Positions 1-59,623 of a DNA stretch of 64,000 nt are shown here, piece by piece. The stretch is from Candidatus Moraniibacteriota bacterium. GTDB lineage: Bacteria > Patescibacteriota > Minisyncoccia > Moranbacterales > UBA1568. The translations under genes were made by a program, and so were the position numbers. Below the pieces are notes generated by a model. The model did not search any database and was not told the DNA's origin. It saw only the letters and a program-made list of their open reading frames with translations. Position 1 is the stretch's first letter. The number at the start of each line of letters is the position of its first letter. The stretch lies in contig JBAQEZ010000001.1 in the NCBI GenBank assembly GCA_049287005.1, forward strand, positions 2,204 through 66,203, read 5' to 3'.

Positions 1-163
1 TTAAACAGAGCGGGACGAGGATAATCCGCAACGCGCAAGACAAAGAAACCAGCGGTATTTTCCAGCCCGTCGCTCGGAACCGGAAACCGATGGATAGTCT
101 TGAGAAAAGCAAAGAGGGAAGCGAGCTGTGTGCGGCCAGTCCTGCTGCCACCCGGCAACAGAC

Positions 164-1117
164 TCACTCTTCCAGGCGACGGAAAAGTCCGTCCAAATCT
201 TCTGGGGAATAATATTCGATAACGATTTTCCCACCTTTCCCGGAAGGAGCAATTTTTACTTTTGTGCCAAGCAGCTGCGTCAGATGCTCCATGCGCTGTA
301 CAATTTCCGGATGGAGTACCGCGGTACTGCGAATATGCGGATTCACGGAAATACTCCGCACCTTCATTTCTGTCTCGCGCACCGTTAGTTCTTCTTTGAT
401 AATCAAATCAAAGACCGCGCGCTGCTTTTCTGGATTTTCTATCGCCAAGAGCGCCTTGGCATGGCCTTCGCTGATCTTCCCCTCGGCCACCGCCCGCTGA
501 ATTTCAATGGGAAGATGGAGCAAGCGGAGCGTATTCGCGACAGTACTGCGGCTCTTGCCCATTTTGATCGCCACCGCTTCTTGCTGCATGCCGAATTCAT
601 CAAGTAACCGCAGAAAAGCTTTTGCTTCTTCGATGGGATTGAGATTGTGCCGCTGAATATTTTCGATAATCGCCAATTCCAGTTTTTGCTGTTCGGTAGC
701 GTCGCGCACAACGACAGGAACGGTTTGCAGCCCGATACGCTTGGCTGCCTGAAACCGACGCTCTCCGGCAATAATCTCATACTGGGCGCCTGCCTGTGTC
801 ACGACGAGCGGCTGCAGAATCCCATGTTCTTTAATCGATTGCGCCAACTCATCAAGTTTGGATTCATCGAAATTGAGGCGGGGCTGATGCGGGTTCGGTA
901 CGATTTTTTCAACGGAGATTTCCATCGCTCTCCCGTTGCCACCTTCTCCTGTCGTAGCCGAAAAAATAGATGCCGACGACGCAGATACGAGAGGCTGCGG
1001 AATCGACTGCGCTACCGCGGTCGCATGGAAAGGCGACGAAATTTCTCCATCTTCAGCTTTTTTTTTCGGCGGTATCAGCGAGGCCAATCCCCGTCCGAGA
1101 CCATATTGTTGCGCCAT
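164..1117 (-). CDS. parB: Chromosome partitioning protein ParB (Spo0J-like)
   Basis: 317-aa ORF with a ParB/Spo0J box (LAIIENIQRHNLNPIEEAKAF) and an HTH segment; sits directly downstream of parA. Confidence 0.85.
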   Translation of the reverse strand: MAQQYGLGRGLASLIPPKKKAEDGEISSPFHATAVAQSIPQPLVSASSASIFSATTGEGGNGRAMEISVEKIVPNPHQPRLNFDESKLDELAQSIKEHGILQPLVVTQAGAQYEIIAGERRFQAAKRIGLQTVPVVVRDATEQQKLELAIIENIQRHNLNPIEEAKAFLRLLDEFGMQQEAVAIKMGKSRSTVANTLRLLHLPIEIQRAVAEGKISEGHAKALLAIENPEKQRAVFDLIIKEELTVRETEMKVRSISVNPHIRSTAVLHPEIVQRMEHLTQLLGTKVKIAPSGKGGKIVIEYYSPEDLDGLFRRLEE

Positions 1118-1261
1118 AATAACAAAATCAAAGTTTAAAAATCAAAATGAAAAATGACAATTTAAAATGCAAAAAGATGAAATGTCAAAATTATTCCGAA
1201 TTTTAATAATTTTTTATTTTGCATTGTCATTTTGATTTTTGATATTTACATTTTACATTTA
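1118..1261. repeat. AT-rich parA-parB intergenic region carrying the 23-nt motif AAAAATCAAAATGAAAAATGACA (1137-1159) and an inverted partial copy (~1205-1240)
   Basis: Direct reading of the sequence. An exact second copy of the motif occurs at 6448-6470. An inverted AAAAATCAAAATGACAATGCAAAA copy is on the opposite strand. Confidence 0.7.
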
Positions 1262-2053
1262 CTAGAGTACTTTCAGCTTCTTCTTCTCCTCTTCTTCCCA
1301 TGCGAGTATTTCTCGTACCACTCCTTTGTACGCACGCGCACCCTTGGAAAAGGCATCGAAATCCAGAATAGATTTTCCGAAACTCGGAGCCTCGGCAAGA
1401 CGCACCGAACGCGGTATCACGCTTTCGAACACCGGCCCGGGAAAATGTGTCCGCACCTCGGATACGACTTGCCGCGCCAGACGATTGCGCCGATCATAGA
1501 GTGTCAGTAATGCTCCCATAATTTTCAGATGCGGTTGCAAATTTTCACGTACCAACTCGATCGTACCGAGCAGCTGGCTGAGCCCCTCCAGCGCATAATA
1601 CTCCGTCTGGACGGGGATGACTATCTCGTCAGAAGCGACCAAACCGTTGATCGTGAGCAATCCCAAAGAAGGAGGACTATCGATCAAAATATAATCGTAG
1701 TAGGATCGTATCTGACGCAAAACATTGTACAGACGGAACTCGCGATTCTCGATGTGTACCATCTCGATTTCCGCCCCTGCCAGATCCTGTGCCGACGGGA
1801 TGATGTGCAGGTTTTCCGCGTCTGTCCGCAGAATGATTTCTTGTGGTGGCAGACCGAGGATCATCGCGTGATAGAGATTCTTTTTCAAACTCCGGGCATC
1901 GATACCCAGTCCCGAAGAAGCGTTGCCTTGCGGGTCCAAATCCACCAAGAGCACCTTCTTGCCTGCTTCGGCAAGATAATGGGCAACATTAATCGTCGAA
2001 GTAGTCTTGCCTACCCCGCCCTTCTGATTGACGAATCCGATGATCTTTGCCAT
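1262..2053 (-). CDS. parA: ParA/Soj family partitioning ATPase
   Basis: N-terminal deviant Walker A (KIIGFVNQKGGVGKTTSTINVA); 263 aa. Confidence 0.9.
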   Translation of the reverse strand: MAKIIGFVNQKGGVGKTTSTINVAHYLAEAGKKVLLVDLDPQGNASSGLGIDARSLKKNLYHAMILGLPPQEIILRTDAENLHIIPSAQDLAGAEIEMVHIENREFRLYNVLRQIRSYYDYILIDSPPSLGLLTINGLVASDEIVIPVQTEYYALEGLSQLLGTIELVRENLQPHLKIMGALLTLYDRRNRLARQVVSEVRTHFPGPVFESVIPRSVRLAEAPSFGKSILDFDAFSKGARAYKGVVREILAWEEEEKKKLKVL

Positions 2054-2250
2054 AGATAGCTTGTAACCTGTAGCTTATGAGCCGGTAGACTTAAAGTGAA
2101 GCGCCGACAAGCATTCTTATACTTTCCCTCAGAAGCTAAAAAACTACCGCCTAAGAAGCTTTCGTTATTATAGTCCATTGACAAATGATTATCAATTTTC
2201 TATCCTGCTTCTATGTCTACGGACAGTCTGGGGCTCAACACAAAGGAAAT

Positions 2251-2336
2251 GCCGAGGTGGTGGAATGGTAGACACACGGGACTCAAAATCCCGCGATAGC
2301 AATATCATGAGGGTTCAAGTCCCTCCCTCGGCACCC
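2251..2336 (+). tRNA. tRNA-Leu (anticodon CAA), long variable arm
   Basis: GCCGAGGTGGTGGAATGGTAGACAC...CTCAAAATCCC...GGTTCAAGTCCCTCCCTCGGCACCA folds as a cloverleaf with a CAA anticodon loop and a long extra arm. Confidence 0.85.
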
Positions 2337-2340
2337 ATAA

Positions 2341-2380
2341 AAAACAGCTCACCATCCGGTCAGCTGTTTTTAATTTTTCT
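2341..2380. terminator. Bidirectional intrinsic terminator (AAAACAGCT/AGCTGTTTT stem plus T-tract) after tRNA-Leu; also ends folD
   Basis: Perfect 9-bp inverted repeat with a 12-nt loop followed by TTTTTAATTTTT. Confidence 0.7.
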
Positions 2381-3206
2381 TCAGAGCCGCATCGGTCACG
2401 CGAGCGAGGAGCGAGGCGACGGTCACAGGACCGACGCCGCCCGGCACCGGAGAAAGCCACTTCGCTTTGTTGACAACACTGGCGTGGTGTACGTCGCCGA
2501 CGACTTTTCCGTCGAGATGACTGATGCCGCCATCGATAACGATACTCTCTGGAGCAAGCATCTCTCCCGTAATCAGATTCGCGATACCGCACGCGGTCAC
2601 GACCACCCGTGCCGCTTGTGTTTTTTCTGCAATGATTTCCTTTTTTTCAGAACTCAGTATATACTCGCTTGCCAAGCCTTCGAGGGCGAGCGCTTGTGCC
2701 ATAATTTTTCCCAGGAGATCAGAATTGGCTATGACCAGTCCTTTCTCGCCGATATAATATCCTCTTCCCGTACGCAGTAACTCGAGCATAGCGCGTGGAA
2801 ATACCGGACACGCTTCGATATCCCCCGTAAAAAAACGCCGCAGAGTTTCCTCATGAAAACCGTCCGTGTCTTTGTTCGGATCGATACGCGCGATAATCTC
2901 ATCCGTATCCAAACCTTCCGGAAGCGGCAGCTGCACGATAATCCCATGGATGTCACCGCGCTGATTGAGCGTATCGATACGCCGCGTGACGTCATCCGTA
3001 GCTGTCGCCGCAGGAAACAAGAATTTTTCAAAATAAATGCCGACGGCTTGCGCCGCTTTTTCCTTGAGATTCACGTACAGATGAGATGAAGTATCATCCC
3101 CTACCAGAATCACGGCCAGCCCCGGAGCGATGCCGGCTGCCGCGATCCGCTCTTGCGTTTCCGAGAGAATCTTATCGGCTATCGGTTTTCCATACAAAAG
3201 CGCCAT
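2370..3206 (-). CDS. folD: Bifunctional methylenetetrahydrofolate dehydrogenase/cyclohydrolase FolD
   Basis: MALLYGKPIADKI start within the 341-aa ORF; FolD-like sequence with a GGVGPVT motif. The likely start is the Met at 3206. Confidence 0.85.
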   Translation of the reverse strand: MALLYGKPIADKILSETQERIAAAGIAPGLAVILVGDDTSSHLYVNLKEKAAQAVGIYFEKFLFPAATATDDVTRRIDTLNQRGDIHGIIVQLPLPEGLDTDEIIARIDPNKDTDGFHEETLRRFFTGDIEACPVFPRAMLELLRTGRGYYIGEKGLVIANSDLLGKIMAQALALEGLASEYILSSEKKEIIAEKTQAARVVVTACGIANLITGEMLAPESIVIDGGISHLDGKVVGDVHHASVVNKAKWLSPVPGGVGPVTVASLLARVTDAALKKN

Positions 3207-3246
3207 AGATACGAAAGTAAAAAATCGTGAGTGAAAAGCGCCAAAA

Positions 3247-3735
3247 TTACAGCGCGTCGAAATATTTCTGAGAAAATCGTTCCCATGCTTTTGGAAAAAT
3301 ATATTCGCAAACAACATACGTCGTGGCAGCCGCGATCGCCATGCTCCCGAAAATATCGGTAAAATGATGGATTCCCGCGAACACCCGCGAAGCACCCACC
3401 AGAAACGCTATGATGAACAGCGTGTTGCCGATCTTACGATTAAAAAGAAATATCACCGCCGCGACGGCACTCCCGAGGAGCGTATGATCCGAAGGGAAAC
3501 CGTTGTCCGCATCGTGCGGCAAAAGCGGAGCAAATTGTCCGACGACGAACGGCCGCGGATCGTAATACAGCTGGCTCAAAATTTTTGCCGCTATGTACGT
3601 AAGCGGTAACGCGATGGCAGCGCACAGAATAATTTTCCAGCGCTGCTCTCTCGGTTGACGCCAGATATATGCGAGCGCGACAAGAACAATAAGCAGATAG
3701 AGATATTGCGCTCCAAAAATAATAATGGTTTCCAT
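3247..3735 (-). CDS. PAP2-family phosphatase (undecaprenyl-diphosphatase-like) membrane protein
   Basis: PSDH and SRVFAGIHHFTDI motifs (PAP2 signature); multiple TM helices. Confidence 0.7.
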   Translation of the reverse strand: METIIIFGAQYLYLLIVLVALAYIWRQPREQRWKIILCAAIALPLTYIAAKILSQLYYDPRPFVVGQFAPLLPHDADNGFPSDHTLLGSAVAAVIFLFNRKIGNTLFIIAFLVGASRVFAGIHHFTDIFGSMAIAAATTYVVCEYIFPKAWERFSQKYFDAL

Positions 3736-3791
3736 AAAATTGAAATAGTATTTTCCTAAAATTCTTGGAAAAATAATGGTTCAAAATAGCC

Positions 3792-4463
3792 TCAAAACAG
3801 CGTTCCGAACGGCTTGATATCGGCCAGCGGCGCGTGCTCTGTTTTGGCTGATTCCAACAGTTTCTTGTTACCGTGTAACTCAGCCAAATACTCCCAATTG
3901 CGGAATTCCGGATATTTTTCCAATTGTTTTTCCAGAATTTCCACTGTGACGCGCACATCTCCCGCTCCCGTATGAGCATTCACATGCTCCTTCCCGCAGT
4001 AGAGTTTGTACGCGGCACCGAGATTACGCGGCGCGAACATATCACGCACTTCCATTTTGTGATAGAGAATTTTCGCATCCAGCACTCTCTTCGATGTAAA
4101 ATCGAAATTTTTCCCCACCGAGGAGAACTCGCCCTTGAGAAACGGCAGATCGAATCCCGTGATATTGAATCCACCGACATCCGCCCCCTCGAACATGCTC
4201 CACAGTTCATACGAGAGTTTGGCGAAACTCGGCGCGTCCGCCACGTCCTTATCATAGATGCCATTGATGCGGCTCGCTACTTCTGGAATCGGTTTCCCGG
4301 GGTTGATCCGCTGGCAATACGCCACGATTTCTCCGCTGGGCATGATTTTCTCGTACGCGATCTCAATGATCTTATCCTCCCCCGCAGCCAGCCCGGTCGT
4401 TTCCAAATCAAAAATAACTAGCGGACGATCAAGTGGTAAATATTGTGCTATAGTGGATCTCAT
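3792..4463 (-). CDS. DEDDh 3'-5' exonuclease (DnaQ / Pol III epsilon-like)
   Basis: VIFDLETTGL Exo I motif; HTGAGDVRVT Exo III-like motif. Confidence 0.75.
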   Translation of the reverse strand: MRSTIAQYLPLDRPLVIFDLETTGLAAGEDKIIEIAYEKIMPSGEIVAYCQRINPGKPIPEVASRINGIYDKDVADAPSFAKLSYELWSMFEGADVGGFNITGFDLPFLKGEFSSVGKNFDFTSKRVLDAKILYHKMEVRDMFAPRNLGAAYKLYCGKEHVNAHTGAGDVRVTVEILEKQLEKYPEFRNWEYLAELHGNKKLLESAKTEHAPLADIKPFGTLF

Positions 4464-4598
4464 ACTGTGGCAAAAGATAACAAAAAAAACAAAGAATGTG
4501 CTTAGTGTAGCACTCTTTCAGAACTCTGCCTAGGCTCGATGGTTTCGGGAAATCGCTCGGGAGGTTTCGTCTTTTACCCTTCTGATCTGGGTCATACT

Positions 4599-6428
4599 CT
4601 ATTCTACCGTCACGCTTTTTGCTAAGTTTCTCGGCTTATCGATGTCGTAGCCGCGTTCCACGGCGACGAAATACGCAAATAATTGCAATGGGATAACCGC
4701 TACAAGCGGCGTCAGCATCTCCAGCGTCTTGGGGACATAAATCACATCAGTCGCTTTCTTGGCGATGGCCGTATCCCCTGCCGTAGCGATGGCGAGGATT
4801 TTTCCACCTCGCGCGAGGATCTCTTCCATGCCGCTGATATTCTTTTCATAAACGCTGTCTTTGGGAATGATCATCAGAGATACCACCGATGCGTCGATGA
4901 GCGCGATCGGTCCGTGTTTCATTTCTCCCGTCGGATATCCCTGCGCTGGCACATAGGCGATCTCCTTGATCTTGAGCGCTCCCTCCAGCGCATTGGGGAA
5001 ATTATATTTCCGTCCCAGATACAGATAGTGGGGCTGCTGGGCATATTTTTTGGCCAATTTTTTGATCTCTTTCACTTGCTCGAGCACTTTTTCTATGTCT
5101 CTCGGAATATTTTCGAGCTCTTTGATGATACGTTTCCCCATCACCAGAGACAGGCCCCGCTGGCGCCCCAAATACAGCGTAAGCAGCGACAAAATCGCCA
5201 GCTGCGAAGTGAACGCCTTCGTGGAAGCAACGGAAATCTCCGGGCCGGCATGACAGTACACGCCCGCATCTGTTTCTCGGGCGATCGTCGAACCGACGAC
5301 ATTCACGATACCGATCGTCAAAGCGCCTTTTTCTTTGGCCTCTCGAATCGCGGCCAACGTATCGGCCGTCTCGCCTGATTGCGAAATAGCGACAATGAGC
5401 GTTTTTTTGTCCAAGAGTGGCTTACGATAACGAAATTCCGAGGCCATCTCCACTTCGGTTGGGATGCCGGCGTATTCTTCGAGCATGTATTCGCCTACCA
5501 GACCAGAATGATAGGAAGTCCCGCACGAAACAATGATGATCCGATTGATGGAACGCAAACGCTTCTCTACCGTCCGCAGCCCACCGAGCCGTGCCCTGCC
5601 GTCCTCCGGCATCAGGCGTCCGCGCAGCGCGTCCGTAAAGCTTTGTGGCTGATCGAAAATCTCTTTCAGCATGAAGTGCGGATATCCGTTATGTTCGGCC
5701 ACCGTTTTGTCCCACTCCAGTATCAATTCCTCTTTTTCTTTCTTCCGGCTCGAAAACGTTTTTACCGCATAGCCGTCCTTTCTGATCACGGCGATCTCGC
5801 CATCATCGAGGTACACGACGCGTTTCACGTCGCCCACCATCGCCGACACGTCGGACGCGATGAACATCTCCTCATGCCCGATACCGATGACGAGAGGGCT
5901 GCTCAGGCGGGCCACCAGCATCACTTCGGGATCTTTCGCCGAAATGGCGACGATGCCATAGGCTCCTTTCAGCTGCTTGAGCGTTTTCACGAAGGCTTCT
6001 TCGAAAGAAAGCGTTTTCATGTCCTCTTCCAAGAGATGAGCGATCACTTCCGTATCCGTCTCGGAGCGGAACTTGTGTCCTCTCTTTTCAAGGATATCTT
6101 TCAATTCTCGATAATTCTCGATGATGCCATTGTGCACCACGGCCACCGCTCCGGTGCAATCGACGTGCGGATGGGCATTCTTTTCCGACGGCTTGCCGTG
6201 GGTCGCCCAGCGCGTATGCGCGATACCGATACCGCCGGCGTACGTGCTGCCCTCCATTTTCGATTCCAGCATCGCCACCTTGCCGAGCGCTTTTATGGCC
6301 TTGATTTTTCCTTTTTCCAAAAATGCCACACCGGCCGAATCATAGCCGCGATATTCCAAACGCTTGAGCCCCTCGATGAGAAAATCCTTTGCTGGCCGCT
6401 TCCCGAAATAGCCTACGATGCCGCACAT
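4599..6428 (-). CDS. glmS: Glutamine--fructose-6-phosphate aminotransferase GlmS
   Basis: MCGIVGY N-terminal nucleophile; two SIS domains; 609 aa. Confidence 0.95.
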   Translation of the reverse strand: MCGIVGYFGKRPAKDFLIEGLKRLEYRGYDSAGVAFLEKGKIKAIKALGKVAMLESKMEGSTYAGGIGIAHTRWATHGKPSEKNAHPHVDCTGAVAVVHNGIIENYRELKDILEKRGHKFRSETDTEVIAHLLEEDMKTLSFEEAFVKTLKQLKGAYGIVAISAKDPEVMLVARLSSPLVIGIGHEEMFIASDVSAMVGDVKRVVYLDDGEIAVIRKDGYAVKTFSSRKKEKEELILEWDKTVAEHNGYPHFMLKEIFDQPQSFTDALRGRLMPEDGRARLGGLRTVEKRLRSINRIIIVSCGTSYHSGLVGEYMLEEYAGIPTEVEMASEFRYRKPLLDKKTLIVAISQSGETADTLAAIREAKEKGALTIGIVNVVGSTIARETDAGVYCHAGPEISVASTKAFTSQLAILSLLTLYLGRQRGLSLVMGKRIIKELENIPRDIEKVLEQVKEIKKLAKKYAQQPHYLYLGRKYNFPNALEGALKIKEIAYVPAQGYPTGEMKHGPIALIDASVVSLMIIPKDSVYEKNISGMEEILARGGKILAIATAGDTAIAKKATDVIYVPKTLEMLTPLVAVIPLQLFAYFVAVERGYDIDKPRNLAKSVTVE

Positions 6429-6447
6429 AGTATTAGAATTAAAATGT

Positions 6448-6470
6448 AAAAATCAAAATGAAAAATGACA
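6448..6470. repeat. Second exact copy of the 23-nt AT-rich motif, 20 nt upstream of the glmS start
   Basis: Identical 23-mer to 1137-1159, with the same 20-nt spacing to the downstream minus-strand start codon. Confidence 0.7.
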
Positions 6471-6479
6471 GATAAAAAT

Positions 6480-7118
6480 TCAAAGATTTTTCAAAATTCC
6501 CCATGCTTCCTTTAAGTCACTTGCGATATAATCACAAAATTCGTTCGGCCCTTCATGATAACGCCCTTCTTCGCGCTGTATACAAACCGTCCGTATTTTT
6601 GGGAAAACTCGCTTCACACTTTCAATAAAGTGTATTCTATCATCAAAAAACCAAGCGTTCTTCCCATCATCGTTGATCTCGCTTTGAAGAGCCTTCGCCT
6701 TGTCCTTATCTGTTATGATATTCCGCTCTATGAATTGTGAGATGCCGGTTCCTGAAATTTTAGTTGACTGGAAATCTGCGTCACCAAATGAAAGGATAAA
6801 TATTTTATAACCGCTTTTTTTCAGTGATGATAGGAAGCCCTTTACGTCAGAAAAGAGAAATTTTTCCGTATCAGCAACATATATTCCTAACTCCTTCCGC
6901 AAACCCTCCTCATCGAAAGACAATTGTTTTCGTAACCTTTCAATATGCATCTCGCAAGAATAACACCACCCACCCACAGGAAACTCAGCCCTTATCTCCT
7001 GATACGATGCCCGAAATAATTCTTTCGAAATTCCGAACTCTTCAAAGATATCTTGCAAACCGTCAGAAAACGCACGCGTATTAAAAAGTAAGTCATCAAA
7101 ATCCAAAAATATTTTCAT
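6480..7118 (-). CDS. HAD-superfamily hydrolase
   Basis: N-terminal KIFLDFDDLLF (HAD motif I DxD); 212 aa. Confidence 0.55.
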   Translation of the reverse strand: MKIFLDFDDLLFNTRAFSDGLQDIFEEFGISKELFRASYQEIRAEFPVGGWCYSCEMHIERLRKQLSFDEEGLRKELGIYVADTEKFLFSDVKGFLSSLKKSGYKIFILSFGDADFQSTKISGTGISQFIERNIITDKDKAKALQSEINDDGKNAWFFDDRIHFIESVKRVFPKIRTVCIQREEGRYHEGPNEFCDYIASDLKEAWGILKNL

Positions 7119-7795
7119 AGAAATGCCGCGATCTGTTGTTGCGCTTTCTGCAGCGCTTCCGGGCTGCCGATCGGAAACCAGGTTTTGGTCCGCTCGACGG
7201 CGATGTCGTATTTGTCACGCATCTGCACCAGCGTCTGCGGCAACCCGAATTCCCTCTGTGATATCGGCACCAGCGGGTACTCGAAAAAATGCCTGTTGAG
7301 CACATAGGCTCCGGTATTGACGAGCGTGTATTCGGCGGGATGCGGTTTTTCGATGATCCTCACGAGCTTGCCATGAGCATCAGTTTGGAGCACTCCGAAT
7401 TGGCTCGAATCCTCCATTTCGCAGGCGAGCACCGCGAGATCATGCCCGAGCATCCGCTCCAGATCTTCCCTGAGATACAGATCATCACCCATCAGGACCA
7501 GGAATTTTTCCCCGACGATATCTTTCATGAGATGGAGCGTCCCGCCCGTGCCATTCAATTCCCGCTGTTCCACATAACGGATGGGTTTCCCGCCGTAGGT
7601 CTCTCCGAAATACTCCCGGATCACCTCACCGCGATGGCCGATCACCAGAATGATCTCCGTGATAGCCTCCGGCAGCGTCTGCAAAGAATATTCCAATTTC
7701 GGCTTATTTTGAATCAAAAGCATCGGCTTGGGGATATTCTCCGTCAACTCCCCCATCCGCACTCCTCTCCCCGCCGCGAGAATAACGCACTGCAT
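7115..7795 (-). CDS. Sugar-phosphate nucleotidyltransferase (NTP-transferase domain, GlmU N-terminal domain-like)
   Basis: VILAAGRGVRMG...KPM glycine-rich loop; 4-nt overlap with the downstream HAD gene; same operon as glmS. Confidence 0.7.
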   Translation of the reverse strand: MQCVILAAGRGVRMGELTENIPKPMLLIQNKPKLEYSLQTLPEAITEIILVIGHRGEVIREYFGETYGGKPIRYVEQRELNGTGGTLHLMKDIVGEKFLVLMGDDLYLREDLERMLGHDLAVLACEMEDSSQFGVLQTDAHGKLVRIIEKPHPAEYTLVNTGAYVLNRHFFEYPLVPISQREFGLPQTLVQMRDKYDIAVERTKTWFPIGSPEALQKAQQQIAAFL

Positions 7796-7814
7796 ATCAT
7801 TAGAAAAACAGAAG

Positions 7815-10268
7815 TTAAATCACCAAACTCAGAATCTTGTCCTGGATATAGATCACTTTGCGAATTTTTTTACCAGCAATATATGTTGCCACTTTCGGAT
7901 CGGCCAAGGCCATGTTTTTCACTTCTTTCTCGGCGCTGCCCGTGGCCATCTGAAGAAGAGCACGCACCTTTCCGTTCACCTGTACCGCAATCGTTTGCAT
8001 TTCATCCACGATTTTCTTCGCATCATACTTCGGCCACTGCGTCAGAAAAATCGATTTCTTCTCCCCCATAGCATGCCACAATTCTTCCGCGATATGCGGC
8101 GTGAACGGACTCAAGAGCAGCAAAAGAAGCTTGTAGTTCGTCGTTTGCAGCTCTTCTTCTTTCTCAAACGCATTGACAAGAATCATGAGCGCGCTGATGG
8201 CCGTATTGAATTTGAGGTCTTCGATATCTTCCGTCACTTTCTTGATCGTCTTATGAAGTAAGCTCTCTACAGTCTTATTTGTTAACTGTTTTTTGTTGAC
8301 TGTTAACTGGCTCAATCGCCATGCCTTGTCCAAAAACCGCCGCAATCCGATCACGCTTCCCGTATTCCACGTTTTCATATCTTCGAGCGGACCCATGAAC
8401 ATCTCATAGAGACGGAGCGTATCCGCGCCGAGTTCCCCAACCACGATATCCGGATTCACCACGTTGCCGAGCGATTTGGACATCTTGCGCCCGTCTTCAG
8501 CGAGTACCATTCCCTGATGGCGCAGTTTCACGAACGGTTCATCGAATCGGAGGTAATCATATTTCGCCAAGGCCTTGGTGAAAAAACGCGCGTAAAGGAG
8601 ATGCAGTACCGTATGCTCTGCCCCGCCCATATAGAAGTCCACCGGCAGATACTGCGCGAGCTTCTTCGGATCGGCAAACTTCTTGGCATTGTGCGGATCA
8701 GCGAAACGGAGATAATACCAGCTCGAGCATACGAAAGTATCCATCGTATCTGCCTCGCGGCGCGCTTTCTTACCGCACCCTGGGCACTTCACCCTCTGAA
8801 AGCTCTTGGAGCGTGCCAGTGGCGATTCTCCCGTCGGACGGAAATCCACATCCGTCGGCAATTTCACCGGCAGATCTTTCTCCGGCACCGGCACCGCGCC
8901 GCAGTCTTCACAATAAATGATGGGGATCGGCGCGCCCCAATAGCGCTGCCGCGAAATGAGCCAGTCGTGCAAACGATAGTTGATTTTTTTCTTGCCTAAT
9001 TTTTCTTTTACGAGCCAGTTCGTCATCTGCTTACGCGCTGCCTCCGAAGTCAGTCCGGTAAATTCTCCGGAGGCAACCAAGAGACCGTCTTCCACAAAGC
9101 ATTCGCCTGCCTTCTTTTTATCGAGCGCAATGACAGATTGCTTGATTTCAAGCTGATACTTCTTCGCGAACTCGAAATCGCGCTCATCGTGCGCCGGGAC
9201 ACCCATCACCACGCCCGTACCATAACTTCCGAGGACATAATCGGCGACATACACCGGCACCTTCTCGCCCGTGAACGGATTCACCGCCGCGATGCCTTCG
9301 AGTTCTACGCCAGTCTTTTCCTTGTTGAGCTCCGTCCGCTCCAGATCCGTCTTCTTTGCTGTCTTCTCAAGATACTTCTTCACCTCCCTGGCATTTTTTA
9401 CTTTCAACTCTTCACTTTTACCTTGAAACAGTTCCTGAACTATTCTATGCTCAGGAGCTATAACCACGTACGTACAGCCGAAAATCGTATCTACTCGTGT
9501 GGTAAATACTTTTATGTCTTCCTCTGTATTCGCAATAGGAAACACCACCTCCGCACCTTCCGAGCGTCCAATCCAGTGTTTCTGTGCAGCCATAGTCGAT
9601 GACGGCCAATCGATTTTTGCCAAACCGGACAGTAATCCGGAAACTTTTTTCCCGCTCTTCGATCGGGAATCTTCAACGAAATCTGTAATTTTGAAAAACC
9701 ATTGCTCGAGTTCCTTCTGCACGACCTCCGTTCCACAACGATCACACTTACCGTCGATTACCTGTTCATTCGCAAGCACGGTCACATCCTTCGGACACCA
9801 ATTCACATGCGCTTTCTTTTTGTACGCGAGACCGTTTTCGTACAGGAAGAGGAACATCCACTGCGTCCACTTGTAATATTCAGGGCTGGAAGCATTGATT
9901 TCCCGCTCCCAGTCATAGGAAAGTCCGATGGATTTGATCTGACGTTTGAAATTCTTGATTGACTCGATGGTTTTCTTGCTCGGATGAATACCGGTCTTGA
10001 TAGCGAAGTTCTCGGCTGGTAGACCGAAGGCGTCCCAGCCCATCGGATGCAGCACACTGTACCCGTTCATCCGCTTGAATCGAGCATAAATATCCGTTGC
10101 CGTGAAATTTTCCACGTGTCCGACATGCAGACCATCGCCTGACGGATAGGGAAACATATCCAGGATATAGAATTTCCCTTTCCTGCCTTTCAACTGCGGA
10201 TGACCGCTTTTCGCCCAGGCTTTCTGCCATTTCGCCTCGATAACCTTTGGATTGTATGCTTTTTTCAT
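7815..10268 (-). CDS. leuS: Leucyl-tRNA synthetase
   Basis: PYPSGDGLHVGHVENF (HIGH motif), KMSKS present, ~817 aa. The start is taken at MKKAYNPK. Confidence 0.95.
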   Translation of the reverse strand: MKKAYNPKVIEAKWQKAWAKSGHPQLKGRKGKFYILDMFPYPSGDGLHVGHVENFTATDIYARFKRMNGYSVLHPMGWDAFGLPAENFAIKTGIHPSKKTIESIKNFKRQIKSIGLSYDWEREINASSPEYYKWTQWMFLFLYENGLAYKKKAHVNWCPKDVTVLANEQVIDGKCDRCGTEVVQKELEQWFFKITDFVEDSRSKSGKKVSGLLSGLAKIDWPSSTMAAQKHWIGRSEGAEVVFPIANTEEDIKVFTTRVDTIFGCTYVVIAPEHRIVQELFQGKSEELKVKNAREVKKYLEKTAKKTDLERTELNKEKTGVELEGIAAVNPFTGEKVPVYVADYVLGSYGTGVVMGVPAHDERDFEFAKKYQLEIKQSVIALDKKKAGECFVEDGLLVASGEFTGLTSEAARKQMTNWLVKEKLGKKKINYRLHDWLISRQRYWGAPIPIIYCEDCGAVPVPEKDLPVKLPTDVDFRPTGESPLARSKSFQRVKCPGCGKKARREADTMDTFVCSSWYYLRFADPHNAKKFADPKKLAQYLPVDFYMGGAEHTVLHLLYARFFTKALAKYDYLRFDEPFVKLRHQGMVLAEDGRKMSKSLGNVVNPDIVVGELGADTLRLYEMFMGPLEDMKTWNTGSVIGLRRFLDKAWRLSQLTVNKKQLTNKTVESLLHKTIKKVTEDIEDLKFNTAISALMILVNAFEKEEELQTTNYKLLLLLLSPFTPHIAEELWHAMGEKKSIFLTQWPKYDAKKIVDEMQTIAVQVNGKVRALLQMATGSAEKEVKNMALADPKVATYIAGKKIRKVIYIQDKILSLVI

Positions 10269-13509: not shown

Positions 13510-14496
13510 CTACCTACCGGCTGAGGTAAATATGACGCCCGTTTTTGATATTTTTTCGCTTCCCAAAGGGATTTCCTCTGCCGCCCCATTGAAACGTACA
13601 AACGTCCTTGCGGCGTTTTCTGAAGTAATTTTTATCGTATTTTTCGCCTCTGCCGTTTGCAAATCACCAACCTTCAGAATACCATTGAACACGACGACAC
13701 CATCCGCTTCCACGGTAACCTGCGTCGGTGCATCGCGCATCGAAATATCCACCCGAAAGGTCTCTGCAATTTTCTTTTGAGTCAGATCCTCCATACTCCT
13801 CTCTGATGCCTGCGGTGTATAACTGGATTCGAGAGAAAGCGTTTCTGATTTTTCCTTATCAAAACGATTGACGGAGATGACAGTCACCGTATTGAGCCCC
13901 GCCTGCAGAATCAGCTTGTCAGAAAAGTCTCCATCGCTGCCGACAAACACTGTCTGATTATTGATAGAAACGCGCGCGCCCTTGTCTGTCTTACCTTGTA
14001 CGACGACTTCATTCGACGCTATTTTCGTACCGCTAACCGGGCTGAGAATAATCAAGCGCGGCTCTCCGGCGAATGTCTGAAATTCACGGAAGAGATACAG
14101 GAACGCTCCGCCTACCAGCAGAAAAATCATGGCGATCACGAGTGAGCGCGGCGTGATCACGAGAGAAGAAATATCCAAATGTTTTACATTGAAAGTCTTT
14201 TTCAGGGTCTCCTGACTAAGATTCGCCTGAATATGTCGTTCCCGCTCATAGAGTTTGATAAAGGCCTGCTCATCGATATTCAGATACCGTGCGTAACTCC
14301 TGAGGAATCCACGCACGTAGACATCCGCCGGCAGCTTGTGGTACTCACCATTCTCGAGATACTCCAAATATTTCACCTGAATTCTCGTCGCCTTGGAAAT
14401 TTCGGACAAGCTCATCCGGAGATCCCCCCGAAGCTTTTTCAATTTCTCACCGAGCGTCAGTGATTCGACTTTTTTCCGCGTAAAACCATCTTTCAT
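13510..14496 (-). CDS. RodZ-like cytoskeleton protein (XRE-type HTH, a single TM helix, and a C-terminal domain)
   Basis: LGEKLKKLRGDLRMSLSEISKATRIQVKYLEYLE HTH, followed by a TM helix (IAMIFLLVGGAFLYLF). Confidence 0.6.
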   Translation of the reverse strand: MKDGFTRKKVESLTLGEKLKKLRGDLRMSLSEISKATRIQVKYLEYLENGEYHKLPADVYVRGFLRSYARYLNIDEQAFIKLYERERHIQANLSQETLKKTFNVKHLDISSLVITPRSLVIAMIFLLVGGAFLYLFREFQTFAGEPRLIILSPVSGTKIASNEVVVQGKTDKGARVSINNQTVFVGSDGDFSDKLILQAGLNTVTVISVNRFDKEKSETLSLESSYTPQASERSMEDLTQKKIAETFRVDISMRDAPTQVTVEADGVVVFNGILKVGDLQTAEAKNTIKITSENAARTFVRFNGAAEEIPLGSEKISKTGVIFTSAGR

Positions 14497-14508
14497 ATAC
14501 TCGCTTTT

Positions 14509-14564
14509 TAGCTTCTTAGCTATTTAGCTTCTTAGCTATTTAGCTTCTTAGCTATTTAGCTTCT
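14509..14564. repeat. Tandem array, 3.5 copies of the 16-bp unit TAGCTTCTTAGCTATT (contains the near-palindrome AGCTAAATAGCT), immediately upstream of the rodZ-like start
   Basis: Direct reading; the units abut exactly. Confidence 0.9.
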
Positions 14565-43272: not shown

Positions 43273-43436
43273 CAATTACCAATCACCAAATTCCAATCAC
43301 CAAGGAAAAACCGATTATCACTATTCAATCACCAAAATAAAACTCTTTCTTGATTATTTGGTTATTGATTATTGAAATTTATTTGTATCTTGCCTGCCTG
43401 CAGGCAGGCAGGGATTTTGGTTATTGGTTATTTAAA
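43273..43436. repeat. atpA-atpG intergenic repeat structure: 3-4 forward CAAT(C/T)ACCAA repeats, a 20-nt perfect GC palindrome TGCCTGCCTGCAGGCAGGCA (43391-43410), and inverted TTGGTTATTG repeats
   Basis: Direct reading; the palindrome is exact and the flanking 10-mers are reverse complements of each other. Confidence 0.85.
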
Positions 43437-55546: not shown

Positions 55547-56695
55547 TTATGCACGCAAACGCTCCATAAGACGCATATAGAAACGCAGGTTATGCAGCGA
55601 AGCGAGGCGCAGAGCCAACGGATCCCCCACTTTGAAGAGATGCTTCAGATACGCCCGCGTATGATTCCGACACAACTCACAATCACACGTCGGATCCACG
55701 GGCGCAAAATCTTCCTTGAACTGCTCGTTATTGATATTGATAGTTTTATAGAAAGAATCGAATTGTGAATTTTGAATTTTGATTGAATTTTGAGGTTCTA
55801 ATTGAGATTGTTCGTTCCAAATGAACAAACGGCCGTGCCGTCCCTCGCGCGTCGGTATTACGCAGTCGAACATATCCCACCCGACCCGATGACACCGGAC
55901 GATGTCGTCCGGCGTCCCGATGCCGAGAGCGAATCGCGCGCTCTCCTCCGGAAGAAGCGAGGCGGTGTAACGGACAATATCCTCCAAAAAATTTCCCTCA
56001 TCGTCGATGTGCCGGCCACCGAAGCCATAGCCGTCGAAACCGATTGCCACCAATCCTTCCGCGCAGTGTCTGCGTTGCTCCCGGAACATCCCGCCCTGCA
56101 CCACGCCGAAAAGCAGCGGACGCATCGCTTCTCTCAACCCGCGGGACGCGACCTGTTGTTCATATTCTCTTCGCGAACGTTCTGCCCAACGCAAAGTCCG
56201 TTCCACCGCTTCGGCGACTTCCGTTTCCGGAGCGCTATTGGGCCGCGGGTCATCCAGAACGACCATCATGTCCACACCGAGATCGAACTGGATCTGTATG
56301 GCGCGCTCCGGCGTCAACAGATGTTTCGACCCATCGAGTACCGAACGGAATTCCGCGCCCTCCTCCGTAATCCGCCCCAATTCCGGATTCCTATGAATGA
56401 GCGAGTACACCTGATAGCCGCCCGAATCGGAAAGGATCGGCTTATCCCAATGCATGAACGCATGGACGCCGCCGGCCCGTTTCACGAGATTTTCTCCCGG
56501 CTGCAAAAGAAGATGATAGGTATTGACGACTAATGCACCAATGCCAGCTTTTCCCAAATCCCCGCTCGATACTCCTCGTACCGCCGCGCGGGTGGCATCC
56601 GGCATGAAAAAGGGAGTGCACATACTCCCTGATTTCGTGGCCAGCACGCCCGTACGCCGCCCGCCGATATTTTGTTGTTGTTTCCACGCGGACAT
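55547..56695 (-). CDS. tgt: Queuine tRNA-ribosyltransferase
   Basis: Catalytic region LSDSGGYQV and a C-terminal Zn site CDCELCRNH...H. Confidence 0.93.
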   Translation of the reverse strand: MSAWKQQQNIGGRRTGVLATKSGSMCTPFFMPDATRAAVRGVSSGDLGKAGIGALVVNTYHLLLQPGENLVKRAGGVHAFMHWDKPILSDSGGYQVYSLIHRNPELGRITEEGAEFRSVLDGSKHLLTPERAIQIQFDLGVDMMVVLDDPRPNSAPETEVAEAVERTLRWAERSRREYEQQVASRGLREAMRPLLFGVVQGGMFREQRRHCAEGLVAIGFDGYGFGGRHIDDEGNFLEDIVRYTASLLPEESARFALGIGTPDDIVRCHRVGWDMFDCVIPTREGRHGRLFIWNEQSQLEPQNSIKIQNSQFDSFYKTININNEQFKEDFAPVDPTCDCELCRNHTRAYLKHLFKVGDPLALRLASLHNLRFYMRLMERLRA

Positions 56696-58751: not shown

Positions 58752-59495
58752 CTAGTGCATAATCCACTGAAAAAACCGAGTGACCACCAAATGTACTTCG
58801 CGCAGCGCCGCCGGTTCCACTTTGACGCGTGACAACGTTTCCAAGCGATTACCCAAAAAAAGGCGGATGAGCTTGATCGTGTTCTCACTGACCGGGAAAA
58901 CATGCTCGGCACCATGAGTACGTTGTCCGGCCAGCATCCCACCGGCACTTGGACTGAAAAAATGTTGTTCGCCTGATTGCAGTTTTTTTCCTGATACGGC
59001 GCACCGGTCGGTTTCGATCGCATAGCCCAGATGGGCGAATAGCTGGATCAGAAAGCCTTCTGTCAATAAGAATATTTTCTCTTTTTTCCGTTCGCGCGCC
59101 AAATCATCGGCCAATGACAGATATGTTCCAAGCAACTGAAACAATTCACGATCCGGCTCATCCCACTCGATCAGGCGCTCGAAAATACTCACTGTTTCCA
59201 GTATGCGTTTCAGGATATCCAAATCGGTGCGCAGATGGAGAAAGTTTTTTTCCGCTACGGCTCCGGCGATTCTCCCCGTTCCGCGCCCTTTCACCACGAT
59301 CACCAATCCCTGCATGAGCGTCTCGAGCTGACCGGCCAGTTTCGCCTCGGACTTCCGCACGCCCTTGGCCACCAGCTGCACCTTGCCCTGCTCCGCCGTA
59401 TACAGCGTATACAGGCGGTCGGTTTCCCCTACCTCTTTTTTCCTGATCACGATGGCGTTATAGCGAAGTTCCACAGAAAAATTTCTAATTTCCAA
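58752..59495 (-). CDS. recO: DNA repair protein RecO (non-ATG, TTG start)
   Basis: N-terminal OB-fold-like sequence (NAIVIRKKEVGETDRLYTLYT), ~247 aa. The first codon is TTG. Confidence 0.65.
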   Translation of the reverse strand: MEIRNFSVELRYNAIVIRKKEVGETDRLYTLYTAEQGKVQLVAKGVRKSEAKLAGQLETLMQGLVIVVKGRGTGRIAGAVAEKNFLHLRTDLDILKRILETVSIFERLIEWDEPDRELFQLLGTYLSLADDLARERKKEKIFLLTEGFLIQLFAHLGYAIETDRCAVSGKKLQSGEQHFFSPSAGGMLAGQRTHGAEHVFPVSENTIKLIRLFLGNRLETLSRVKVEPAALREVHLVVTRFFQWIMH

Positions 59496-59623
59496 TTTCT
59501 AATTTCCAATCAATTTTCAATGACTGAATTTCAAAATCTTCAAAATTATTGATCACAATTTAACTCAAATGAGAATTTTCTCAAAATATCTGCGGTAAGA
59601 ATTTTTCAGAGAGGCTTGAAAGT

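Follow-up and report, generated by a model that had tools for sequence, protein, structure and literature searches.

A polar T-rich heptad repeat at ORF boundaries of Patescibacteria, with copies upstream of parB and glmS in a Moranbacteria genome

Results

Which sequences separate the genes around parB and glmS in a Moranbacteria MAG? The window—the whole 64,000-nucleotide stretch that was analysed—carries on its minus strand parB (164..1117; Pfam ParB_N, HTH_ParB, and ParB_C), parA (1262..2053; AAA_31, CbiA, and ParA), glmS (4599..6428; GATase_6/7 and SIS), and, upstream of glmS, a gene for a HAD-family hydrolase (6480..7118; Hydrolase and HAD_2). The ParB protein is 100% identical to a protein of a Candidatus Moraniibacteriota MAG. 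About 110 nt upstream of parA lies a canonical sigma-70 promoter (TTGATA-17-TATAAT, minus strand, 2167..2195; 11 of 12 consensus positions), and its sequence is conserved in three relatives (L121, L123, and L125). Thus, this genome uses ordinary promoters, and parA has one of its own.

The 23-mer AAAAATCAAAATGAAAAATGACA matches the plus strand of the window twice, at 1137-1159 and 6448-6470, and has no further match there at three or fewer mismatches; none of 100 dinucleotide-preserving shuffles matched it (0 expected). Both copies stand at the same distance from a minus-strand start codon: 19 nt separate the core from the ATG of parB (1118-1136; ATG at 1117-1115) and from that of glmS (6429-6447), the A of the ATG being base 20 in each case. 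Neither 19-nt stretch, AAACTTTGATTTTGTTATT or ACATTTTAATTCTAATACT, contains a Shine-Dalgarno (SD) sequence. An earlier note on this DNA had described the exact repeat, its fixed distance to the two start codons, and the absence of SD sequences, and all of these observations hold.

Each copy belongs to a longer T-rich arm. The arm immediately upstream of parB spans 1126..1177 on the minus strand (exact core match; profile match with E = 8.9e-10 in the first round and 3.6e-9 in the second). At the parA side, an inverted partner arm spans 1209..1258 on the plus strand, its T-rich 3' end directed toward the parA stop codon (1262-1264), 3 nt away. The inverted partial copy reported for this spacer is real: it is one heptad (TCATTTT) below consensus length and was matched by a profile built from other copies (E = 0.0036 in the first round, 6.7e-7 in the second). 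Between the two arms lies an AT-only, nonconserved spacer (1178..1208) with a perfect TTGACA on its minus strand, and the element includes a promoter-like TTGACA-18-TAAATT (minus strand, 1188..1159). The 51-nt spacer between the HAD-family gene and glmS is occupied by a single T-rich arm (6438..6488, minus strand; exact and profile match around the second core), whose 5' end reaches into the HAD-family stop codon (6480-6482); a duplex test of this arm against the 90 nt behind it gave no partner (z = +0.9). As the earlier note recognized, the motif is neither a parS site nor a DnaA box. Its suggestion of a centromere-like or origin-proximal site is not borne out, as the window holds no parS-like site and GC skew keeps its sign along the window, so that neither origin nor terminus lies inside it.

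How widespread is the repeat? The 23-mer is the best-conserved core of an arm of ~50 nt that is built of eight ~7-nt units (n-m-ATTTT) and has the consensus AATTTTnmATTTTrmAT-TGTCATTTTTCATTTTGATTTTT-nmATTTTnmATTT (m = A or C). Across 125 copies, conservation continues past the core for 17 nt on the 5' side and 13 nt on the 3' side, and the flanks beyond are unrelated. The arm family was found in many Patescibacteria: at least 120 stretches from GTDB species representatives, and at least 120 from metagenomes, contain the exact core, and the genome-collection matches listed come from about 70 Patescibacteria MAGs with GC contents of 32% to 59%. Viral contigs and Rfam held no copies of the core. 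The repeat was not found in the literature searched, and the family appears to be undescribed. Depending on the genome, elements occupy 7% to 62% of the spacers of at least 50 nt, with a maximum of about one element per 2.5 kb, and in dense genomes they part otherwise tightly packed gene clusters. Roughly 40% of elements consist of one unpartnered arm. The spacers inside 79 pairs measure 0-154 nt and are unrelated in sequence, and 17 further arm pairs flank spacers of 200-822 nt. At variable positions, the likeness between arms is 0.469 within a genome and 0.471 between genomes. Two local cases were also seen: in L040, two copies 0.8 kb apart have >85 nt in common, spacer included, and in L121 a 5' piece of atpD, duplicated and since diverged, flanks a pair and resembles a recombination scar.

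We then asked how the arms are placed relative to genes. Arms sit where a spacer meets an ORF, and their T-rich strand leads 5' to 3' into that ORF, at starts and stops alike. Median distances, taken from the profile end, place the 3' end of the T-rich strand 2 nt from a stop codon and 8-9 nt from a start codon, and on the arm's other side the next ORF is 62-110 nt away; copies abutting stop codons are about as numerous as those abutting start codons. The ATG lies at +16, +18, or +19 past the core in 29 of the 39 start-facing exact copies, a spacing that was replicated in metagenome contigs. The 23-mer thus recurs upstream of other genes at fixed spacing, and the earlier interpretation is partly supported: a shared cis-element that is not due to chance stands, but its specificity for parB and glmS, partition, or the origin does not, as many other genes and stop codons are abutted too. 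Genes preceded by an arm elsewhere include dnaJ, rplN, uvrC, hisS, rsmH, gap, topA, dnaE, and the RNase J gene. Behind the arms thus stands a diverse set of genes in which essential housekeeping genes and operon-leading genes are frequent, so the arm must permit efficient expression.

Because each arm points at its own gene, the order within a pair is invariant, A-rich and then T-rich (79/79 pairs; 69/69 in a second dataset). Pairs occur in tandem (56), convergent (7), and divergent (5) contexts at frequencies equal to the background. In tandem pairs, the stop-facing arms are conserved as well as the start-facing ones (exact core in 29/56 vs. 18/56), and a purely 5' function would therefore leave half of the copies unexplained. 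Some ORFs extend into an arm and terminate at its built-in stop codon. One tRNA gene was seen between arms, which abut protein-coding ORFs and not the tRNA gene.

Do paired arms act as a hairpin? The large inverted repeat that the earlier note saw between parA and parB is present, and its 131 nt fold better than shuffles on both strands (dG of -26.7 and -22.9 kcal/mol; z of -4.9 and -3.0), as do pairs overall (mean dG of -26.8 vs. -12.3 kcal/mol for shuffled sequence; median z of -5.3). It does not, however, resemble a selected hairpin. At free positions, partner arms have an identity of 0.28, below the 0.45 expected, and of 0.25, below 0.42, in an independent set; pairing cells amount to 78.0% compared with 82.7 +/- 0.6% in shuffles, of which 500/500 were higher, and real pairs fold more weakly than arms given random partners (-26.0 vs. 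-30.9 kcal/mol, p = 3e-6). The sense and antisense RNAs of pairs do not differ in stability, and 80% of single arms lack even a cryptic partner. GC-rich hairpins are found in 8 of 79 pair spacers and in 130 of 255 element-less spacers; directly 5' of single arms they are not enriched (15/100 vs. 45/335 control windows). The arms do not work through pairing, and the two-arm hairpin appears to be kept weak rather than selected.

The missing SD sequences at parB and glmS are not exceptional. Only 7% of the genes of related loci have an SD-like motif, with the same pattern across the window, and -10-like hexamers concentrate 6-10 nt before ATGs; SD-less translation is thus the general case in these lineages, where leaderless transcripts seem to make up a sizeable class. 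Position -1 is occupied by T or C in 89% of the genes preceded by an arm and in 66% of other genes. Canonical TTGACA/TATAAT promoters and GC-rich terminators are present in the same genomes. At putative -10 positions, start-facing arms are no closer to consensus than stop-facing ones (A at position 30, 49% vs. 63%; A at position 23, 59% vs. 35%, a weak effect). Overlapping terminators and promoters, with a T-tract just upstream of the -10 element, have been described (bioRxiv 10.64898/2026.08.19.745784).

The sites in the window have turned over among relatives. L121, L123, and L126, with ParB proteins 79-82% identical to that of the window, have in common a different sequence upstream of parB; L125 (75% identical) has a third, and the HAD-glmS spacer of L123 is also unlike that of the window. 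What these relatives (ParB 75-82% identical) have at the same sites is also periodic in 7 nt but differs in sequence. In the window, replacement extends over the entire spacer, leaving no remnant and adding no length. No association with transposases was seen, the sole Y1 transposase (in L125) having unrelated hairpin ends of its own.

Discussion

What, then, is the arm? Its role is probably related to gene expression. The reading we tentatively prefer, with a probability of about 0.35 and a mechanism that we infer, is that the arm is a polar ORF-boundary expression module for SD-less and possibly leaderless genes; on this reading it is not a hairpin, parS site, operator, or origin element. 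The arms are independent of one another, each an oriented module bordering a spacer, and the apparent inverted repeat between parA and parB consists of one arm from each neighbouring gene, the glmS spacer holding a single one. In mRNA sense, a gene is preceded by a heptad array that is rich in U, free of AUG, and ends 3-6 nt short of the start codon, or is followed directly behind the stop by the A-rich complement, which closes all three reading frames. Before a gene, the arm may serve as an unstructured U-rich initiation region and probably also as the promoter-proximal part of a short-leader or leaderless transcript, with candidate features in its TAnATT-like units, in the pyrimidine at -1, and in the ATG, whose A would be +1. 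At gene ends and in pairs, it would mark the end of a transcription and translation unit, with terminator and promoter regions perhaps combined compactly, as in promoter-coupled terminators. Several observations argue against this reading: an ATG at +16 is too near the last TnmATT unit for a leaderless start, pairs are not depleted where a promoter or terminator makes no sense, the putative -10 positions of start-facing arms are not more consensus-like, canonical promoters and terminators coexist in the same genomes, and GC hairpins are not enriched 5' of single arms. The arm's ~50 conserved positions also give it an information content well above that of known promoters, terminators, or ribosome-binding sites.

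Alternatively, the arms may be selfish or neutral intergenic repeats in a REP/BIME- or MITE-like role, spread by recombination or some form of transposition and tolerated nowhere but at ORF edges, with no more than secondary effects on expression. We consider this unlikely. The element is derived in the window, since relatives differ upstream of parB and at the HAD-glmS site, and the strongly genome-dependent density, the extended identity in L040, the scar-like atpD duplication in L121, and the ORFs that run into an arm and use its stop codon all agree with such an origin. Against it, arms are no more alike within than between genomes, inter-arm spacers are unrelated in sequence and length, whole-spacer replacement without a gain in length is unlike insertion, no transposase association was seen, viral contigs lack copies, and strict ORF polarity with tight ATG spacing is unexpected of neutral insertion. 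REP/BIME elements and REPINs of Proteobacteria are, like the arms, short spacer-confined repeats in hundreds of copies, single or in inverted pairs, within operons or at their ends, and may secondarily influence mRNA stability or bind proteins. Yet the REP unit is a GC-rich palindrome and the arm a nonpalindromic T-rich heptad array; REP families are species-specific and tied to RAYT transposases, whereas the arm consensus is common to ~70 genomes of many candidate phyla; and REP hairpins are kept by compensatory changes, whereas partner arms avoid pairing. MITEs such as the Correia elements of Neisseria likewise have terminal inverted repeats of ~25-50 nt around a short interior, lie next to genes, and can carry promoter-like sequences, but their copies have a common interior, uniform length, and target-site duplications. 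Arms enclose unrelated interiors of 0-154 nt or longer, form no genome-specific subfamilies, and come with spacer replacement that adds no length.

Could the repeat be a DNA-uptake or recombination signal, as are DUS of Neisseria and USS of Pasteurellaceae? A conserved competence machinery would then prefer the motif, which would build up in spacers through biased uptake and homologous recombination. Competence genes and natural transformation have reportedly been found in Patescibacteria. Copies are nonhomologous outside the motif and form no genome-specific subfamilies, orthologous sites turn over without insertion signatures, density varies by lineage up to about one element per 2.5 kb, singles and inverted pairs both occur, and the atpD recombination scar adjoins an element. 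USS have a conserved core plus periodic AT tracts, an architecture that the arm resembles, and with DUS (Neisseriaceae) and USS it has in common a clade-wide consensus, copies not related by descent, turnover at orthologous sites, and occurrence in spacers as singles and inverted pairs. The idea nevertheless seems distinctly improbable, as it predicts neither ORF polarity nor a fixed ATG distance and leaves the avoidance of complementarity between partner arms unexplained. Known uptake sequences have 9-12-nt cores and are found inside genes too, whereas the arm is much longer, at ~50 nt, never intragenic, and strictly oriented to ORFs.

No more credible, in our view, is a selected two-arm hairpin, whether as a bidirectional AU-rich intrinsic terminator, an RNase III processing or mRNA-stabilising stem, or a DNA cruciform. 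Pairs do fold far better than shuffles, their A-tract/stem/T-tract geometry is that of bidirectional terminators, and GC-rich hairpins are rare in pair spacers, as if the element had replaced canonical terminators. Bidirectional intrinsic and promoter-coupled terminators (bioRxiv 10.64898/2026.08.19.745784) are similar in that transcription units are separated by an A-rich arm, a centre, and then a T-rich arm that immediately precedes the next gene's start, and in that the spacers between tandem genes are compact; unlike them, the arms usually have no GC-rich stem, conserve ~50 nt of sequence, disfavour complementarity, and are often single. Partner arms are anticorrelated at all free positions in both datasets, pairing falls below that of every shuffle and folding below that with random partners, and sense and antisense RNAs are equally stable. 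Moreover, ~40% of elements, the glmS copy included, are single arms, arms also bracket spacers of 200-800 nt, and pairs precede essential genes within operons (e.g., atpD in L121).

Very unlikely, too, is a role at the level of DNA, with the arm as an array bound by an abundant architectural protein or topoisomerase, comparable to REP/BIME with gyrase and IHF, in which gene boundaries would be topological or nucleoid-domain borders. A/T tracts recur every ~7 bp across ~50 bp, flanking genes whatever their direction, and arm-less spacers have heptad periodicity as well; on the other side, there is no candidate protein, and neither the ATG distance nor the abutting of protein-coding ORFs but not of the tRNA gene is explained. 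An operator or regulon site common to parB and glmS, a ParB centromere, or an origin-proximal element is exceedingly improbable: the window copies precede the two genes at identical spacing, but these ideas, including the operator of the earlier note, are contradicted by the distribution of the arms, which precede many unrelated genes and abut gene ends as often, are lacking before parB and glmS in relatives, and are accompanied by no parS-like site or skew switch in the window.

The STRR heptanucleotide arrays of heterocystous cyanobacteria are, like the arms, 7-nt periodic and restricted to spacers. They simply repeat a single heptamer in tandem and are specific to their lineages, whereas the arm has a fixed order of units (..ATTGTC-ATTTTTC-ATTTTG-ATTTTT..), is oriented to ORFs, and is superphylum-wide. 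The periodic arm-less spacers seen here include tandem arrays.

A 23-nt motif before parB and glmS

How far beyond these two genes does the 23-mer before parB and glmS extend? The sequence, AAAAATCAAAATGAAAAATGACA, is present exactly at 1137-1159 and 6448-6470, as the earlier note stated, and the fixed spacing it described holds as well: on the coding strand both copies read TGTCATTTTTCATTTTGATTTTT, and 19 nt separate each from its ATG, with no Shine-Dalgarno (SD) sequence in either 19-nt stretch. The Pfam-identified genes of this neighborhood all lie on the minus strand: parB (164-1117), parA (1262-2053), glmS (4599-6428), and a HAD hydrolase gene (6480-7118), with folD, a PAP2 gene, and an exonuclease gene listed between parA and glmS and a nucleotidyltransferase gene after the HAD gene. 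The inverted partial copy proposed for the parA-parB spacer was recovered at 1209-1258, minus one TCATTTT unit, and the whole repeat in this spacer is predicted to fold more strongly than shuffled sequence. No third copy was found in the window at up to three mismatches, and shuffles gave zero matches. Chance or low complexity is ruled out: 0 copies are expected in the window, and at least 131 exact copies occur in at least 120 stretches of a genome collection.

The suggestion that the motif might be an origin-proximal site did not hold up, the GC skew being negative along the entire window. Its distinction from parS did: TGTTNCACGTGAAACA, a 16-bp palindrome, is unmatched at up to three mismatches across the window, and the 23-mer itself is nonpalindromic. 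With no skew switch and no parS-like site in the window, a parS, origin, or DnaA element is rejected; the motif is without any tie to origin or centromere.

The 23-mer is the core of a ~50-nt arm

Alignment of 125 copies shows that conservation reaches 17 nt before and 13 nt after the 23-mer, beyond which the flanks are unrelated. We refer to this ~50-nt T-rich repeat as the arm and to its best-conserved 23 nt as the core. The arm consensus, AATTTTnmATTTTrmAT-TGTCATTTTTCATTTTGATTTTT-nmATTTTnmATTT, consists of eight ~7-nt units (n, m, ATTTT, where m is A or C), the third unit being ATTGTC. Read from the consensus, the T-rich strand holds no ATG; its complement holds several and closes all three frames within ~35 nt, which is why some ORFs end inside arms.

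A profile built from the aligned copies found 263 arms in 890 kb (the window and the core-bearing loci of the genome collection, L001-L120), only three of them in the 64-kb window; as these loci were picked for an exact core, the central columns and density estimates are biased. The densest case, 37 elements in 94 kb of the MAG CAZVCF (62% of its ≥50-nt spacers), is partly inflated by locus choice. In dense genomes, gene clusters are tightly packed except where elements fill the space between them.

Distribution among Patescibacteria

Which organisms carry the core? When one genome from each bacterial and archaeal species was scanned, at least 120 stretches contained the exact 23-mer, and a scan of JGI metagenome contigs gave at least 120 further stretches, both counts being lower bounds. 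Viral contigs (IMG/VR) held zero exact copies, and a phage origin is rejected on this ground. The genome-collection stretches listed (at least 120) come from 69 genomes, with locus GC contents of 32-59%. Informative record names are those of Patescibacteria from many candidate phyla—Moran-, Taylor-, Uhr-, Sungii-, Falkow-, Buchanan-, Magasanik-, Vogel-, and Zambryskibacteria—together with Minisyncoccales and Paceibacterota; the window itself comes from a Candidatus Moraniibacteriota MAG.

The labels Gammaproteobacteria, Bdellovibrionales, Elusimicrobia, and Pacearchaeota on some core-bearing MAGs appear unreliable. Loci with such doubtful labels include L009, L113, L004, L005, L053, and L045. 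In the one case checked, L009 (“Bdellovibrionales”), the named hits of the tyrosyl-tRNA synthetase are all Moranbacteria, Parcubacteria, or Patescibacteria (66-73% identity), and judged by this protein the locus is Moranbacteria-like. L045 (“Pacearchaeota,” DAOSDI) has an element and spacer identical to those of L105 (Patescibacteria UBA6102) and is probably misbinned or from the same organism.

No known RNA family was found in Rfam: there was no match at the arms of window 1-8000 up to E=1, and none at gathering score in 12 arm-holding loci. The 23-mer was not found in the literature searched, nor was any such element found in literature on Patescibacteria promoters, terminators, and leaderless genes. 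Some contigs start or stop within tens of bases of a core copy, and 13 of the 233 arms of the metagenome set are no more than 60 nt from a locus end, which suggests that assemblies may break at the repeat. At the end of contig CAYZNS010000030 (L043, ~4764-4815), a Nextera adapter (GTCTCGTGGGCTCGGAGATGTGTATAAGAGACAG) adjoins an arm and is adapter contamination in a public MAG.

Arms adjoin the starts and stops of ORFs

How are arms arranged relative to genes? The 184 elements comprise 79 pairs (two inverted arms in one spacer, as between parA and parB) and 105 single arms, as at glmS. Pair order is always A-rich arm, spacer, T-rich arm (79:0; 69:0 in the metagenome set), so that both T-rich strands of every pair point outward. 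The sequences between paired arms are unrelated and 0-154 nt long (median ~23), and 17 more A-arm/T-arm combinations lie on either side of 200-822 nt. By gene calls that follow a longest-ORF heuristic, the 3' end of the T-rich strand adjoins an ORF, the median distance counted from the profile end being 2 nt to a stop codon or 8-9 nt to a start codon; the opposite end of single arms lies 62-110 nt from the next gene. The constant pair geometry thus arises because each arm points at its own gene, and it is no separate evidence for a hairpin.

Arms facing starts are about as frequent as those facing stops, and the sequence is the same in both. Stop-facing arms are conserved at least as well, and the idea that start-facing arms are the conserved class is therefore rejected. 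Pairs lie in tandem (56), convergent (7), or divergent (5) contexts, in the proportions of spacers in general. Among start-facing arms, the ATG follows the core at +16, +18, or +19 in 29 of 39 cases, and in 20 of 34 in the second, metagenome data set; the window copies, with the ATG 19 nt past the core, are typical of this class. The genes behind arms are varied housekeeping genes, often first in an operon: dnaJ, rplN, uvrC, hisS, rsmH (twice), gap, topA, dnaE, and an RNase J gene. These unrelated genes leave the gene-specific ideas of the earlier note unsupported and rule out a regulon. What emerges is a conserved module with a fixed orientation next to ORFs; any function it has is that of the single arm.

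Two further arrangements were seen. In L048 (6780-7135), a tRNA-Ala gene is bracketed by an A-arm and a T-arm that face away from it and adjoin the flanking protein-coding genes; this single case hints that arms associate with protein-coding boundaries and not with any transcription unit. Long arm-bracketed spacers (L116, 4440-4540; L076, 4270-4370; L093, 2096-2353) contain another palindromic repeat family of higher GC content (..GTCATTGCGAGC...GCTCGCAATGAC.. and ..GTCATTTCGAGC...CGAAATGAC..), which sometimes yields spurious ORFs.

Arms as possible expression signals

Do the arms act in gene expression? Across L001-L120 and the window, SD-like motifs precede 7% of genes, T is at -1 of the ATG in 52% of genes and in 72% of those behind arms, and -10-like hexamers, including TGnTAnnnT, concentrate 6-10 nt upstream of ATGs. 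These lineages thus appear to have a sizeable class of leaderless or near-leaderless transcripts, and the pattern suggests that Moranbacteria and Parcubacteria commonly use leaderless mRNAs. Sigma-70 promoters place their -35 and -10 hexamers 16-18 nt apart and start transcription ~7 nt past the -10; in the parA-parB element, matches of this kind reach 9-10/12 (TTGACA-18-TAAATT, TTGTCA-17-TAAACT, and TTGATT-18-TATTAT); the glmS arm is not among the promoter-scan matches listed. A leaderless promoter would have a -10 element that ends 6-8 nt before the ATG, a pyrimidine at -1, and a transcript beginning with the A, a signature that these genomes show in general. Arms with an ATG at +18/+19 place a TnmATT unit at the leaderless -10 distance, yet n is A in only about half of them, and arms with an ATG at +16 do not fit leaderless-promoter spacing. 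Putative -10 positions are no better in start-facing than in stop-facing arms. A canonical promoter, TTGATA-17-TATAAT, lies ~110 nt upstream of parA and is kept in relatives.

With regard to termination, canonical GC-rich terminators occur in the same genomes. In the window, a canonical bidirectional intrinsic terminator (AAAAACAGCTCACC..GGTCAGCTGTTTTTAATTTTT) lies at 2338-2375, between tRNA-Leu and folD, and GC-stem terminators therefore coexist with the arm family in this genome. No terminator-like site is predicted in 1118-1261 or 6429-6479, and a GC-rich hairpin is present in 8 of 79 pair spacers; an intrinsic terminator, for which a GC-rich stem-loop runs directly into a U-tract, is rejected. 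Nor are arms the U-tracts of canonical GC-hairpin terminators, since single arms show no excess of such hairpins on their 5' side (15/100 vs. 45/335 in control windows).

The reading we favor, at a probability of roughly 35%, is that the arm is a gene-boundary expression signal. The basis for this reading is that the ATG lies at a narrow range of distances, that a pyrimidine stands at -1, that SD sequences are lacking, and that these genomes have a leaderless signature, together with the position between transcription units and the essential genes behind, which need efficient expression. Before genes, the arm would be a U-rich initiation and promoter-proximal region; behind genes, its complement would be a trailer. 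Related in spirit are promoter-coupled terminators. The weak points of this reading are serious: stop-facing arms are equally conserved, -10 matches in start-facing arms are no better, and gene contexts equal background. The information content of the arm is also far above that of known expression signals.

Spread of the arms and likeness to known repeats

Could the arms instead be a selfish repeat spread by recombination? Relatives at the parB locus are informative on how the copies arrived. L121, L123, and L126, with ParB 79-82% identical and the same gene order, share a different sequence before parB (..GAAATTGGTAATTAGAAATTTTTT.AAAC..ATG); L125 (75% ParB identity) has a third, with CACAAAA and GTGTTTT heptads; and the HAD-glmS spacer of L123 is made of GACTTTT and AACTTTT heptads. 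As relatives carry other sequences at the same sites, the window copies are derived. Whole spacers of similar length were replaced, from stop codon to start codon and with no remnants, and this does not look like an insertion. In L121 (703-860), a diverged copy of the first 14 codons of atpD lies directly left of an arm pair and the real start directly right of it; duplicate and pair sit within a ~650-nt insertion in the atp operon, where the window and L125 have 40-44-nt spacers at the same junction. The L121 junction resembles one end of a recombination tract with which the element arrived. Arm likeness at variable positions is 0.469 within and 0.471 between genomes, giving no signal of recent within-genome proliferation or concerted evolution. 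We regard a recombination-spread selfish repeat as unlikely.

REP/REPIN units are short palindromes, in genome-specific families linked to RAYT transposases; the arm is not self-complementary and shows no within-genome excess of similarity, which rejects this class. The only Y1 transposase seen (L125, 14577-15322) is of the IS200/IS605 type and has its own GC-rich hairpin ends (ACAGCGGTTCAACCCCTGTA and complement), unrelated to arms. MITEs have a conserved interior, a uniform length, a target-site duplication, and an intact empty site; they are rejected because pair interiors are unrelated and 0-154 nt long, and because the ancestral window spacer was replaced, not interrupted. Integron attC sites and Vibrio cholerae repeats are alike in layout only (conserved outer arms, variable center, abutting ORFs): attC has an inverse core, RYYYAAC, and a core, GTTRRRY, and lies next to an integrase and a cassette array, whereas the arm consensus reads without a GTTRRRY core and its flanks are housekeeping genes.

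DNA uptake sequences are preferentially taken up and over-represented in both orientations, including inside genes. Arms, too, are over-represented and might be maintained by biased uptake and recombination, yet they lie only in spacers and are polar towards ORFs, and we consider an uptake-sequence-like signal quite unlikely.

Partner arms avoid complementarity

Are paired arms selected as hairpins? Pairs are predicted to fold at a mean of -26.8 kcal/mol vs. -12.3 kcal/mol for shuffles. However, partner arms are less complementary than chance. Their identity at variable positions is 0.28 against an expected 0.45 +/- 0.017, measured on flank columns because choosing loci by exact core biases the central ones. 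At A/C positions one partner has C and the other A: column 11 is mixed in 57 pairs, AA in 1, and CC in 3, against ~30, 14, and 16 expected. An independent set of 55 pairs from unbinned metagenome contigs replicated the result (0.248 vs. 0.420 +/- 0.025, z=-7.0; column 11 mixed in 42, AA in 2, CC in 1). No linkage was found between units within one arm. Paired cells amount to 78.0% vs. 82.7 +/- 0.6% with shuffled partners (higher in 500/500 shuffles), the covariation score is 0.041 vs. 0.078, and an arm folds less stably with its actual partner than with a random one (-26.0 vs. -30.9 kcal/mol, p=3e-6); a perfect palindrome of the arm is predicted at -60.9 kcal/mol.

A structured RNA or hairpin element (REPIN-like, or an RNase III site), whose base pairs would be maintained by compensatory changes, is rejected on these scores. 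A sense-strand-specific RNA hairpin with G-U pairs is rejected too, sense and antisense RNA stability of pairs being equal (p=0.33). Singles are not decayed pairs: 80% of them, the glmS arm included, have no complementary partner within 90 nt. Circularization of an mRNA through the 5' U-arm and 3' A-arm of one gene is rejected because their agreement is random (0.464). We judge an assembly artifact behind the anti-correlation unlikely, since ~50-nt arms are shorter than assemblers' common larger k-mers, identical 23-bp cores do not keep a pair from being assembled, and two data sets obey the rule column by column.

Arms thus do not behave as a selected hairpin, and a hairpin-based role is very doubtful. 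The anti-correlated partners and weaker folding imply that pairing is visible to selection and limited rather than favored, possibly to avoid cruciform formation or palindrome instability, RNase III cleavage, or masking of the next gene's start region. The replicated rule of partner mismatch at all free positions is an unusual sequence constraint, which existing palindromic-repeat models do not predict. An architectural DNA-binding array is a further rival, to which we give little credence.

Possible meaning for Patescibacteria

Patescibacteria account for a large part of bacterial diversity; most are uncultivable, and many do without SD sequences. To our knowledge, almost nothing is known of how their expression starts and stops. 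The arm offers a concrete foothold here: across dozens of lineages at candidate-phylum level, one sequence of ~50 nt recurs, and always at ORF edges. Any MAG can be screened for this element, which delimits transcription or translation units and predicts a conserved reader factor. It is conceivable, if doubtful, that the arms are a superphylum-wide, sequence-defined, nonhairpin boundary signal read by a conserved Patescibacteria factor. This signal would take one of two forms: (a) a new combined stop/start expression signal for mRNAs without SD or leader or (b) universal adapters for uptake or homology, placed on both sides of genes as inverted copies (T-arm -> gene <- T-arm). Under the second form, gene cassettes would be exchanged by homologous recombination between distant lineages in either orientation, and the enforced mismatch of adjacent arms would prevent their mutual pairing or recombination. 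Such an adapter, if real, would bear on gene exchange among reduced genomes.

Other heptad arrays

Spacers without recognizable arms show a weaker 7-nt periodicity, with identity peaks at lags 7, 14, and 21. These patterns make the 23-mer family look like one “dialect,” the most widespread, of a heptad grammar that is general in the spacers of these genomes. The window holds 7- or 14-nt AT-rich arrays at 55760-55793, 59480-59510, 61951-61979, 62892-62930, 43274-43303, and 8278-8304, including GAATTTT, AATTTCTAATTTCC, and CTTGATA, with an arm-like grammar and different sequences. In L121, the parA-parB spacer (..TTTCCAATCAATTTT.CAATGA..) is similar to the array at 59480-59530 of the window. Finally, a near-perfect 16-nt tandem repeat (GCTATTTAGCTTCTTA; 3.9 copies, 97% matches) at 14503-14564 lies directly upstream of the gene at 13510-14496.
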